Of a stretch of DNA of 32,000 nt, positions 9,302 through 30,395 are shown in pieces. The notes beneath the pieces are model-generated. The model saw only the letters and a list, made by a program, of their open reading frames with translations. It was not told where the DNA came from and searched no databases. The DNA is from Candidatus Iainarchaeum sp. (lineage in GTDB: Archaea > Iainarchaeota > Iainarchaeia > Iainarchaeales > CSSED10-239): assembly GCA_037441475.1 (NCBI GenBank), contig JBBISB010000002.1:1-32000 (forward strand), written 5' to 3'. The translations under genes were made by a program, and so were the position numbers. Every line of letters begins with the position of its first letter. Position 1 is the stretch's first letter.

Positions 9302-9940
9302 CTAAACTATATAACTAGATATAAAAAAGATTAAAAGGCTTACTGGAAGTAGAAAACTTATGTATACCCATACTTTCTTAGAGTTATCCTCAAGCTCTGA
9401 TAAATAGATAGAGGAAATTACAATATATTCTATAATATAGATGATTGAACAATAATAACTAACCATGTAAAGAGAAGAACTAGATGTTAAGCCCACAACA
9501 GAAATATCAACTATTCCAGTTAAACTTTTAACTAAAGAAATAACAATACCTAAGATACCAGGAACAATCAAACCACCTGCAAAAAGAATAGTGTACTTCT
9601 GCATTAAGAGAACAGACTTTCTTTCATCAACAAGCTCTCTTGATCTTAAAAAATCCTTAACAATATTTTTATAATCCTGAGAAGTTACTGTTCCTGTAAA
9701 AACAGAATATTCAAGCAAATCTAAAAACTTAGATAAAAGAGGAGATTGGTATTTTTCTTTTAAAACCTTAAAGACTTCTTTTGGTTTATGCCCTTTATTT
9801 ATCTTACTTAAAACCCAACTAAATTCAGTAGATATAAGCTTGTTTGAAGAGGAAGATAACTTAACTAATATAACCTTTAAGTCATTTGATCTTGAAAGCC
9901 CAGAGACCCTTAAAATCTCATCTACCAAAGCATCCTCCAT
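9302..9940 (-). CDS. Type IV pilus platform protein, single T2SS-F domain (TadC/FlaJ-half-like), locus A
   Basis: 212 aa. Cytoplasmic helical domain followed by C-terminal TM segments. Adjacent to a second single-domain platform gene and the ATPase. TAG stop. Confidence 0.55.
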   Translation of the reverse strand: MEDALVDEILRVSGLSRSNDLKVILVKLSSSSNKLISTEFSWVLSKINKGHKPKEVFKVLKEKYQSPLLSKFLDLLEYSVFTGTVTSQDYKNIVKDFLRSRELVDERKSVLLMQKYTILFAGGLIVPGILGIVISLVKSLTGIVDISVVGLTSSSSLYMVSYYCSIIYIIEYIVISSIYLSELEDNSKKVWVYISFLLPVSLLIFFISSYIV

Positions 9941-10016
9941 TTTTTTCTTTTAAGAGAGAAAAAATATTCTGCAAATAAAAAATCTTTAAATCTTTCAATC
10001 ATATTTTATATCACAT

Positions 10017-10661
10017 TCAAGGAAGATTTGCCTTCATGGTTAAAAAAATAAACATATCAATTATTGGAAATAAAATAACAATTATAAAAATTACTGTTAA
10101 GGGAGAAAAAGAAATTTCAAGAAAATTACTACTAACTAAAAGAAACATTAAAAAAAGGGCAGGAACAATTGCAGAGACAACAATGTATATTAAGGATAAT
10201 AAGCTTAACTTTGTTGAATAATTTTTAATTTGATAATTGTGCTTTTCAATAATGCTTGAAGAAAGTTTTCTTAATGCCTCTGCTTTGTTTGAAGAACCAG
10301 TTGAAAGAATATCCTCTATCTGATAGAATACTCTTTTTAAATCATTATTTTCAATACCAACAGTTATAAGTGATTCTGACAAAGAGTAACCTAAATCGTT
10401 TACCTTGTGCATAACTTGTTTTATCTTCTTACCTAAAAGAGAGGAATCTACTCTGTTTTCCAAGGCTATTTTTAAGGAGATATTTTTATCTAGGTCATTT
10501 GCAAGATTGTTAAGAAAGAAAGGAATCTCTTTGTTTATTTGTCGATTGTAATTTTGGGTTTTTATTTTGTAAAGAAAGAAGATTATAAAAACCATTATAA
10601 AAATATTTATTAAATAAAAGTAAGAGAGAGAAGTAACTACTGCATCAATTAAAAAAAACAA
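10017..10661 (-). CDS. Type IV pilus platform protein, single T2SS-F domain (TadB/FlaJ-half-like), locus A
   Basis: 214 aa. N-terminal TM, cytoplasmic domain (EIPFFLNNLANDLDKNISLKIALEN...), C-terminal TMs. TTG start at 10661. The frame stays open 37 codons further upstream with no ATG/GTG/TTG. TGA stop followed by two more in-frame TGA. Confidence 0.55.
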   Translation of the reverse strand: MFFLIDAVVTSLSYFYLINIFIMVFIIFFLYKIKTQNYNRQINKEIPFFLNNLANDLDKNISLKIALENRVDSSLLGKKIKQVMHKVNDLGYSLSESLITVGIENNDLKRVFYQIEDILSTGSSNKAEALRKLSSSIIEKHNYQIKNYSTKLSLLSLIYIVVSAIVPALFLMFLLVSSNFLEISFSPLTVIFIIVILFPIIDMFIFLTMKANLP

Positions 10662-10832
10662 AATAACAGAGCATAAATAAACAATTAAGAATAGAAATAA
10701 ATATTTTCTTGTGAAAATATTATTCTTTAAAAAAACATTCCTTCCATAAACTTTCTTATCACTTTTTTTTTATTAATTTCCTTTAAATATTTAAAAAAAA
10801 ATAATTTTTAAAAAAGAAAATCTTTAAAAAAA

Positions 10833-28688: not shown

Positions 28689-28755
28689 ATATCTACTACC
28701 TTGATTAAAATATATTTTAATATATATAGATATAAGTCATTATATTTATAAATCT

Positions 28756-29487
28756 TTATATAAACTGATTTAAGATAACTGACATTAAATCAAAAATATA
28801 TAAGAAGATTACAAGGATGTAACTAATAAAAATAAGGATAACAAAGGGAACTAAAGGAGAAACCCATACCTTTGAAACATTATTCTTTTTTGCAAAGTTC
28901 TTTAATAAAAGTATCTCTTTTTCAGGCTCTATGTTTGGAGCATAAATGATATTTGAAACTACCTTGTTGTTTTCTAAAGTTAATTTTTCTAAAGGAGTAT
29001 AGAATTTAGTAATTTTATTTAAAGATAAAGGGTATCCTAAAAACATTAGATAAAGGGATTTAAAAAAAGAAAATTTAGGATAATTTCTTTTAAAAACATT
29101 AAATAAGAATATAGATGTTGGAACCAATAAAGTTAAAAGTAAAGCAAAAAAGAAAACAAACATTGGAAAATAAATATTAAAGATATTAGTAAAAGACAAT
29201 GCCATTATTGTATATAAATCTCCCTCTCCGATATAAGTAAAATAACTTAATTTTCCAAGACCATAAAAGATTAATAAGAAAACAAAAGTAACAAATATTT
29301 GTAAAAAGTAAGCCCACCATAGAGAGGTGTTACTTTTAAAAATAAAAAAACCTAAATAAATTAGACTAACAATTGCAAGAACAAGTAAAGACATGATATT
29401 TATTTCACGATATTTAATGTCTTGATACGTAATATAAAGTAGAATAACTAAAGTAAATATAACTAATGGTAAATATAAAACATTCAT
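28756..29487 (-). CDS. A24-family prepilin/preflagellin peptidase (PibD/EppA/FlaK-like)
   Basis: 243 aa, polytopic. Two catalytic Asp contexts: YQDIKYREI and YIGEGDLYT. The start ATG overlaps the upstream gene's TGA as ATGA. Confidence 0.75.
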   Translation of the reverse strand: MNVLYLPLVIFTLVILLYITYQDIKYREINIMSLLVLAIVSLIYLGFFIFKSNTSLWWAYFLQIFVTFVFLLIFYGLGKLSYFTYIGEGDLYTIMALSFTNIFNIYFPMFVFFFALLLTLLVPTSIFLFNVFKRNYPKFSFFKSLYLMFLGYPLSLNKITKFYTPLEKLTLENNKVVSNIIYAPNIEPEKEILLLKNFAKKNNVSKVWVSPLVPFVILIFISYILVIFLYIFDLMSVILNQFI

Positions 29488-30395
29488 ATTGATCTCTTTG
29501 TAAGATACATTAAATCTTTGTAAGCTTTTGTTTTTGTTTTCCTTGCAGTTGATCTTTCAAAAAGATTATCTGTATAGATGCCAGGAGGACCTACAGACAT
29601 TATTCTTTTAAATTTAATTCTATCTAAGATAGTTTTATTTTTAACTTTATCATCTGAAGAATCTATCAAGGACTTTGGTAGATCTAAAGTTATAATACCA
29701 GATCCAATTTCACCTACATTATAACTACCAGAGCCTGCTGTTATAAACTTTGCAGATTTTCCAAGCTTAATGGCAGCTTCAAACCTATAAACAACATCAT
29801 AACTTTTTTGATCTATCTTGTGGGTTATATACTCACTGAAGTTTGAAAGCCCAATTGTTCTAAAAAATCTATGAAGTTCTAAATAATCTAAGACATCTCT
29901 AACTTTCCTTAAAAAGAAAGAATCATACATATAATAAGAAAGATAACCTATTGTCCCTGTATATGCCTCAACACCAATCTTCTTTTCTTTAATTAATTTT
30001 TCAAGTCTATCTAAACCTAATATATATGTTGCTGAGTTTGAGATAAGACCAAAAGGATGAGCTATTGTTATCATATAATTTTTTTTAGAACAAAAATCAA
30101 TTAATCTTCTTAAAGCAACTTTATTTTCATAAAGTATAGAATAGTTATACATCTCTTCATCAGAAGAGTAGACTAAGACCTCTCCTGAGTCTGTCATTAT
30201 CTTTATTCCAGGTATTAATATTTTATCTTTAGGTTTATATTTTAAAAGATCTAAGTATGCTTTCTTTGGATCTAAATAATTATATTCAGTTATGGCTGTA
30301 CCTAAAAGATTATTTTCACAAACTATTTTCCAATATTTCTTTACAGACTCTTTGTTTTTATGTAAGTGAGTGTGCAAATCTATGTTATAAAGCAT
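29484..30395 (-). CDS. PHP-domain-like metal-dependent phosphoesterase
   Basis: 303 aa. N-terminal IDLHTHLH and a later AHPFG. By-eye assignment only. First gene of the locus B operon. Confidence 0.45.
   Translation of the reverse strand: MLYNIDLHTHLHKNKESVKKYWKIVCENNLLGTAITEYNYLDPKKAYLDLLKYKPKDKILIPGIKIMTDSGEVLVYSSDEEMYNYSILYENKVALRRLIDFCSKKNYMITIAHPFGLISNSATYILGLDRLEKLIKEKKIGVEAYTGTIGYLSYYMYDSFFLRKVRDVLDYLELHRFFRTIGLSNFSEYITHKIDQKSYDVVYRFEAAIKLGKSAKFITAGSGSYNVGEIGSGIITLDLPKSLIDSSDDKVKNKTILDRIKFKRIMSVGPPGIYTDNLFERSTARKTKTKAYKDLMYLTKRSI

Follow-up and report, generated by a model that had tools for sequence, protein, structure and literature searches.

A predicted pseudo-ATPase conserved in an Epd/Tad-like operon and an apparently decaying ferredoxin–ATPase module in Candidatus Iainarchaeum

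Introduction

What defines a type IV filament (T4F) machine is a set of four components: ATPase, platform, pilin, and peptidase. Do two loci whose T4F genes look complementary encode one machine or two? This question is raised by positions 1–32000 of contig 2 of a Candidatus Iainarchaeum sp. genome (769 kb in two contigs, 89.5% complete, approximately 26–28% GC), a stretch of 32,000 nucleotides that we refer to as the window. The names of orthologous proteins ("Candidatus (I)ainarchaeum" and "Candidatus Diapherotrites archaeon") put the genome in the Iainarchaeota, a group of DPANN archaea. Locus A (9302–12589) and locus B (19698–30395) both lie on the minus strand. A sequence-only reading of the window took locus A as a motor-competent unit and locus B as a structural one, and proposed a single bipartite machine or a dead/alive ATPase pair. 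To place the two loci, we draw on 21 relatives from the same family and on an order-wide set of 196 genomes from 32 families; relatives are designated by G-numbers (G000 is the genome studied here), and its contig 1 is abbreviated C1. We consider it probable, if by no means assured, that the window holds two separate T4F modules rather than the halves of one machine, with a pseudo-enzyme in the motor position of locus B, a locus A that is decaying, and energy supplied in trans. Locus B is a family-specific Epd/Tad-like operon with what we predict to be a conserved pseudo-ATPase, and locus A is an order-wide, pilin-less module that appears to be undergoing decay in this genome.

The motor position of locus B

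The 990-residue protein encoded in the motor position of locus B has no Pfam match at E ≤ 0.1 and scores 123 bits against the NCBIfam FlaI model, for which the cut-off is 550. Its C-terminal approximately 490 residues match an intact T2SSE paralog of the same genome (phmmer E = 1.6e-28) and, among proteins of known structure, Archaeoglobus fulgidus GspE (afGspE; PDB 2OAP, E = 2.7e-35) as well as FlaI. An AlphaFold model of the ATPase part, built on 39 orthologs, has a mean predicted local distance difference test score (pLDDT) of 84.2 and a predicted template modeling score (pTM) of 0.80, and Foldseek superposes it over its whole length on 2OAP (E = 6e-30, template modeling score 0.72) and on FlaI (E = 1.6e-29). 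The model thus supports retention of the two-domain fold seen in afGspE (2OAP/2OAQ) and FlaI/ArlI (4II7, 4IHQ) over approximately 490 residues.

What the protein has lost is every catalytic motif of that family, as read from alignments of 18 family orthologs and a distant homolog from G037 with active paralogs. In 18/18 orthologs and in G037, D/G-x-DDS--F stands where the Walker A motif (GxxGxGK[ST]) would be, two residues shorter and devoid of Lys and Thr; in the same sequences the ED of the Asp box is replaced by Q-x-YD, the Walker B motif (GE[IV]R) by DEF, DQF, DVF, or DNF, and the TxH of the His box by FSI.P or variants thereof. Compared with GspE and FlaI, the locus B protein is missing GKT of Walker A, Glu of the Asp box, Glu and Arg of Walker B, and His of the His box, and it differs from them further in a disordered N-terminal extension of about 500 residues and in new invariant Trp residues. 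The contention of the sequence-only reading that this homolog has no P-loop is borne out, and extends to all four motifs.

Loss of the motifs has not been accompanied by relaxed constraint. The ratio of nonsynonymous to synonymous substitution rates (dN/dS) is 0.04–0.19 for the C-terminal dead domain versus 0.08–0.24 for the locus A ATPase. The N-terminal part evolves faster (0.2–0.8) and differs in length between species; it is charged and of low complexity (37% charged residues), with no Trp, Cys, or transmembrane (TM) segment. Open frames of 790–1140 residues are found in 18 genomes of four genera, and the protein family comprises at least 54 protein clusters, mostly labeled "hypothetical protein" and with Pfam annotations that are either empty or limited to PF23989. 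Given the loss of all motifs together with strong purifying selection, the sequences identify the locus B protein as a true pseudo-ATPase, that is, a folded, selected, and non-catalytic homolog in the motor position, and predict that it cannot bind or hydrolyze ATP through the mechanism of its family.

Phylogenetically, the locus B proteins are monophyletic (support 100/99) and stand apart from the locus A ATPases, on a long stem beside afGspE-like proteins and the type of ATPase encoded at C1:617220. An origin of B as a paralog of A is rejected by these separate clades. Evidence that the pseudo-ATPase is functionally tied to its own platform comes from G015 (L034, 8955–11878), where both B platform genes are gone, at the locus and genome-wide: the pseudo-ATPase gene is still open, and its terminal branch is four times longer than that of the sister genome G019.

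The dead domain (25716–27200) also carries four invariant Trp residues (W278, W327, W369, and W461 of the 494-residue fragment) that the active paralogs do not have. These residues may mark a new binding surface.

Lesions in locus A

Locus A comprises two T2SSF genes and an ATPase frame, and encodes neither a pilin nor a peptidase. The ATPase of this locus in relatives is a single protein of 580–626 residues without internal stops, in which a 4Fe-4S dicluster domain is followed by T2SSE. This Fer4–T2SSE architecture, which accounts for more than 100 clusters, is frequent in DPANN archaea and bears the pipeline label "CpaF family ATPase/ferredoxin". The window instead encodes a detached ferredoxin domain and an ATPase body (Table 1): a deletion in an A8 run, where tblastn also switches frame, severs the body from its own start codon and from the ferredoxin domain, leaving it with no start codon of its own. 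The body preserves Walker A (GNTGSGKTT), VVEEVRE, and Walker B (VIGEVR), the Asp box being intact, and is then interrupted within the His box by an in-frame TAG (11187–11189) at a codon that reads CAA in 3/3 orthologs (G001, G002, and G003). TAG is an ordinary stop in this genome since it ends 107 of 527 long open reading frames (ORFs; TAA ends 345 and TGA 75) and no suppressor or Pyl-type tRNA was found in the genome; an altered genetic code was rejected on the same grounds.

The two platform genes of locus A have fared no better, each having lost its start region to a one-nucleotide deletion. In platform half 1, the ancestral ATG (10745–10747) is out of frame, the first in-frame start is a TTG at 10661 that lies inside TM1, and homology to G003 extends to 10736, upstream of any in-frame start; a 15-nucleotide in-frame deletion affects TM2. 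A one-nucleotide deletion in an A7 run (9941–9947) puts the ancestral ATG of platform half 2 (10000–10002) out of frame, such that tblastn finds a stop inside the N-terminal homology and the ORF restarts at an ATG (9938–9940), 22 residues shorter than the 234-residue ortholog in G003. The T2SSF matches of both genes are at or just below the Pfam cut-off. The three genes together carry three homopolymer frameshifts (in A8, T7, and A7 runs), one nonsense codon, and one in-frame deletion; four of these lesions are disabling. As assembled, the locus A ATPase is thus not predicted to be an intact gene giving a full-length protein. Of the description given by the sequence-only reading, the two platform halves, the intact Walker and Asp-box motifs, and the absence of pilin and peptidase genes stand, while motor competence is contradicted by the TAG and the A8 deletion.

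Programmed −1 frameshifting at A_AAA_AAT, which would join the ferredoxin and ATPase frames, was considered and set aside: the orthologs are fused in one frame with an extra base, and the nonsense codon in the same gene weakens this explanation further.

Are the lesions real? A frame-aware comparison of G003 proteins with the window found 19 other syntenic genes colinear from residue 1, without stops or frame changes, and the three locus A genes were the only anomalous ones. Runs of at least seven A or T bases are broken in 3/7 cases in locus A versus 0/38 in other genes (Fisher p = 0.0025, post hoc), and the change from CAA to TAG is not a homopolymer artifact because it requires two substitutions. 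On the strength of these three sequence observations we favor locus-specific decay of A over assembly error, while recognizing that they argue against a generic assembly error without disposing of it fully. The distribution of the damage also bears on the relationship between the loci. Locus A has 4–5 lesions in 3.3 kb, and locus B has none in 10.7 kb; by our own arithmetic, the chance that all 4–5 would fall in the 3.3 kb of A out of 14 kb, if the two loci decayed jointly, is approximately 0.003–0.0007. Given that joint dependence predicts joint decay, but all lesions are in A with B and the 19 other syntenic genes intact, we do not regard A as the partner of B here, and the bipartite machine or dead/alive pair put forward by the sequence-only reading finds no support in this genome.

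An ortholog of the ferredoxin–ATPase gene in G016 (C54:2476–3741) has an in-frame TGA, so the gene may have been disrupted more than once in the family. The DedA gene lies 3′ of the A platform genes in eight relatives (G003, G005, G006, G007, G009, G010, G011, and G015), with DedA next to A platform pairs at loci L028, L029, L032, L033, and L053–L056; the DedA/VTT protein may be a functional member of the A module.

Distribution and synteny of the two loci

Locus B, with an open pseudo-ATPase frame, is present in 19 of the 21 other family genomes and, outside the family, only in G037 among the genomes of the order-wide set. A-type modules, consisting of the ATPase, two platform halves, and usually DedA, were found in 19/19 other families sampled, all without B. 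Because A extends across the order in the absence of B, and B is limited to a single family and G037, we treat them as separate systems. Within the family, the two are found together in 17/21 relatives, which favors some link between them. Relatives with B alone do exist (G012 and G019), although both are incomplete metagenome-assembled genomes (MAGs; 82% and 85% complete); one relative (84% complete) has A without B, and one (65% complete) has neither.

The two loci are contiguous and co-oriented in G011 only, where the order is peptidase, B, two platform halves, DUF192, A, two platform halves, and DedA. We rejected this adjacency as a generally ancestral single operon, given that five genera of the family, represented by G006, G007, G008, G009, and G010, have a solitary A module, and that G008 among them is the sister of G011. 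The cassette order of locus B itself (PHP, peptidase, B, platform half 1, platform half 2, DUF192) is kept in four genera and partly in G037. Pilin genes belong to the B cassette in some genera only (g1 and g5), and most g4 genomes lack them.

Two tandem paralogous genes for small multi-pass membrane proteins (15713–16153 and 16277–16738; 146 and 153 residues) lie between loci A and B; G003 has one copy only.

Gene content of locus B

The genes of locus B are close-packed or overlapping (Table 1). Profile matches and alignments agree with the sequence-only reading on a peptidase, two platform halves, a DUF192 protein, an adhesin, and the P-loop-less ATPase homolog. The first gene of the cassette encodes a PHP-like protein without a Pfam match and with a weak match to CehA/McbA metallohydrolases (E = 0.0037); its position upstream of the peptidase is kept in four genera. 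The peptidase, one of three A24 peptidases in the genome, has an archaeal type II C-terminal domain and weakly matches the FlaK model. Both platform halves are syntenic in four genera (half 1 also in G037), and the DUF192 gene, also syntenic, is the sole copy genome-wide.

Table 1. Features of loci A and B and the adjoining DedA gene, in window coordinates
Feature	Position	Strand	Evidence or remark
Locus A
Detached 4Fe-4S dicluster (ferredoxin) N-domain, 165-residue ORF	12092–12589	−	Fer4 family matches, E = 3e-8
A8 run with one-nucleotide deletion	12117–12124	−	Sole one-nucleotide gap in DNA alignment with G001, G002, and G003
T2SSE ATPase body, 429 codons	10833–12122	−	T2SSE E = 8.6e-27 on a 156-residue fragment
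Platform half 1	10017–10747 (ORF 10017–10661)	−	T2SSF E = 7e-5
Platform half 2	9302–10002 (ORF 9302–9940)	−	T2SSF E = 1.3e-5
DedA/VTT-domain membrane protein	8671–9273	−	VTT_dom E = 8.6e-23; intact
Locus B
PHP-like protein, N-terminal HxH	29484–30395	−	First cassette gene; 4-nucleotide overlap with peptidase start
Class III signal (prepilin) peptidase, A24	28756–29487	−	Arc_PepC_II E = 1.2e-12; Peptidase_A24 E = 2.4e-6
T2SSE homolog, 990 residues, predicted pseudo-ATPase	25716–28688	−	GspE/FlaI fold (predicted) without P-loop
Platform half 1, TadB/TadC-like, one T2SSF domain	24866–25708	−	T2SSF E = 6e-12
Platform half 2, one T2SSF domain	23707–24852	−	T2SSF E = 2.3e-6
DUF192 protein	23298–23639	−	PF02643 E = 1.2e-10; fixed cassette member
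Pilin-like protein 1	22657–23184	−	Class III-type N-terminus KKS|ISAIISVVLLILV...SW
Pilin-like protein 2	21982–22518	−	Tandem paralog of pilin-like protein 1 (phmmer E = 1.3e-83), identical N-terminus type
Surface/adhesin-type protein, 766 residues	19698–21998	−	PKD_4 E = 3.2e-7; PKD E = 2.3e-5; Cadherin-like E = 0.004

The two pilins named by the sequence-only reading lie in tandem and have class III-type N-termini, which are common to at least seven paralogs in the genome, and pilin-like protein 1 is paralogous to pilin-like genes beside a platform pair at C1:396–399 kb; no curated family was matched by either protein in Pfam (even at E ≤ 10) or NCBIfam. From the N-terminal pattern and the position in the operon, we infer that these two genes probably encode pilins. 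In G005, giant ectodomains (1216, 411, and 896 residues) carry the pilin N-terminus as a fusion.

The PKD/cadherin-like protein has an ortholog in G003, and neither a signal peptide nor a TM segment is evident in it. Its ORF begins at a TTG and overlaps the end of the second pilin gene, stop included, by 17 nucleotides, and the G003 ortholog starts 52 residues further on.

Other T4F genes in the genome

Elsewhere in the genome, four T2SSE ATPases are free of lesions. One is part of a complete pilus locus (C1:482884–491094) with an ATPase (482884–484782), two platform halves, four pilin-like genes, and its own A24 peptidase. An intact ATPase next to pilin genes is therefore available outside the window, a finding that tells against the bipartite machine of the sequence-only reading; that reading mentioned neither these four ATPases nor the ferredoxin fusion of the locus A ATPase. 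Three ATPases (C1:617220, C1:521579, and C1:88432) have no recognizable platform, and two sets of platform and pilin genes (C1:396–399 kb and C1:58–65 kb) have no ATPase. Scattered T4F parts such as these are the reported pattern for DPANN archaea (PMC13705601).

The ATPase at C1:617220 deserves particular attention as the closest active relative of the pseudo-ATPase. A T2SSF platform was sought near it and rejected, no Pfam T2SSF match being found in nine neighboring proteins; a 510-residue membrane protein nearby might be a divergent platform. The region (L062, C1:617220–623312) also contains pilin-like genes.

Two further loci add detail to this picture. C1:395856–399211 has three pilin genes and two platform halves with no adjacent ATPase gene, and visual inspection of its N-terminus suggests a housekeeping GTPase for the next gene. 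The ATPase at C1:521579–523900 is a lone protein of 773 residues with an N-terminal Cys motif, DCRNCPY, that is like the FLNCPY of the ferredoxin–ATPase, and it is surrounded by small genes resembling regulators or toxin–antitoxin genes.

Comparison with known systems

The Epd/Tad "System 1" type, with a platform split into two genes, has been reported in DPANN archaea (PMC13705601, Sivabalasarma and Albers 2026; PMC4858521, Makarova, Koonin and Albers 2016), and an active ATPase is a mandatory component of the Epd/System 1 models. Locus B resembles this type in its two single-domain platform genes, and probably also in its dedicated in-operon class III signal peptidase and in its putative pilins, which are partly in the locus and partly scattered. 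Each of the four platform genes of loci A and B has one T2SSF domain, in agreement with these surveys and with the Epd/Tad layout recognized by the sequence-only reading. Unlike Epd/System 1, locus B has a predicted pseudo-ATPase without motifs as its motor component, and the ATPase of locus A is broken here; moreover, the locus B peptidase is of the FlaK/Arc_PepC_II type, DUF192 and PHP-like genes are constant parts of the cassette, the pilin-like proteins belong to none of the Epd pilin families, and the ATPase tree places B with afGspE-like and C1:617220-type proteins.

The best precedent for the function of a dead ring is found, by analogy, in PilT–PilU of Vibrio cholerae, Pseudomonas aeruginosa, and Acinetobacter baylyi, in which an inactive hexameric paralog can still be needed for the active one to act on the platform (PMC6762196, PMC6821130). 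The analogy has limits: in bacterial type IVa retraction the dead PilT was engineered (apart from one natural weakened allele), whereas the loss in B is natural, complete, and ancient. For the A module, the nearest parallel is AapX (arCOG07320) of the Sulfolobales Aap locus, a separate iron–sulfur (Fe-S) protein tied to a T4F ATPase and platform (PMC13705601). The link of an Fe-S protein to a T4F ATPase, made by gene association, is alike in the two; the A module differs in that the ATPase itself carries the dicluster domain as an N-terminal fusion.

The archaeal T4F surveys PMC13705601 and PMC4858521 make no mention of inactive ATPases, ferredoxin fusions, or DUF192, and we found no description in the open-access literature of a natural motif-less member of the T2SSE ATPase family or of a ferredoxin-fused ATPase. 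The cassette type is therefore a known one, Epd/Tad-like T4F; what appears from the sequences to be new is a conserved pseudo-ATPase within it, beside a decaying ferredoxin–ATPase module.

Discussion

In our proposal, the pseudo-ATPase would dock on the split platform of its own cassette and serve there as a ring or adaptor without catalysis. Should the cassette assemble a filament, one of the four lesion-free ATPase paralogs would supply the power in trans; we speculate that the best candidate is the platform-less C1:617220 type, with locus A not being the source. A more specific version holds that the dead ring, through the ring itself and its disordered tail, serves as an adaptor by which a platform-less active paralog drives pilus assembly, a proposal that we regard as possible but doubtful; the C1:617220 type may fill this role here and the ferredoxin–ATPase may do so in some relatives.

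Several observations weigh against two separate modules, and we are cautious on their account. Homopolymer runs are the site of all three frameshifts, a pattern that errors in long-read assembly also leave, and a metagenome pattern scan for other contigs found no second assembly of the species against which the lesions could be compared. The locus A copy of this genome has neither raised dN/dS nor raised branch length, so any inactivation is recent, and the survival of B without A therefore spans a short time only. The frequent co-occurrence of A and B in the family, their spacing of 13–19 kb in this genus (g1), and their contiguity in G011 are what linked loci would show. Ring formation, platform binding, and a trans partner are all deduced from genes, and the pilin assignment follows from the N-terminal pattern only.

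These same observations are the strength of an account in which A and B form one machine, with the dead B ring on the pilin platform powered by the ferredoxin–ATPase of A and the lesions attributed to assembly error or very recent damage. Such a machine would explain why pilin and peptidase genes are missing from locus A and why G011 carries both loci as a single co-oriented string, and it has a dead/alive precedent in PilT Walker mutants that work through PilU (PMC6762196, PMC6821130). We nevertheless consider it rather improbable: the four disabling lesions are limited to three A genes and include a two-substitution nonsense codon, A carries its own platform pair and so looks like a self-contained motor–platform unit, and A occurs without B in 19 other families and as a solitary module in four other genera and in G008, which is sister to G011. 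B without A in G012 and G019 and the four other intact ATPases on hand point the same way.

A serious rival to the trans-powered reading is a non-motor role for B, in which the cassette is unpowered and the pseudo-ATPase is a scaffold, brake, or regulator of the platform and peptidase, with adhesins displayed directly or on short stubs without ATP-driven polymerization. The absence of catalytic motifs from every member, a loss older than the family split, is what this account predicts, and the long, disordered, charged N-terminal tail would suit a hub or tether; the cassettes without pilin genes in most g4 genomes and the suggestion of a new binding surface from new invariant Trp residues in the C-terminal domain are also in its favor. 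We judge it unlikely given that selection maintains the full assembly set (the peptidase and both platform halves, joined in g1 and g5 by pilins) and that a platform is known to act only with a motor ring; the account also has no experimental precedent. Far less credible still is that locus B is what is left of a pilus operon in decay, with a pseudogene product as its dead ATPase. Although the loss of all catalytic motifs and the lack of a Pfam T2SSE match could be read in this way, a remnant would not be expected to keep long open frames in 18 genomes of four genera and at least 54 protein clusters, together with dN/dS of 0.04–0.19, a confidently predicted fold, and conserved synteny.

On the reading of two separate modules, the window is a natural experiment in which locus A is apparently decaying while the dead-motor cassette remains intact; it argues against the simplest form of complementation and points to other paralogs. 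Selection on a whole cassette whose motor is predicted to be incapable of using ATP challenges the minimal T4F scheme, and prompts one to ask what drives the platform, or which other task it might have. If the adaptor proposal is true, the pseudo-ATPase would be a natural and ancient counterpart of the engineered pair of dead PilT and PilU, and the cassette would be the first type IV filament system with a pseudoenzyme as its cognate motor. DPANN archaea depend on contact with other cells, and surface systems such as these are probably central to their lifestyle.

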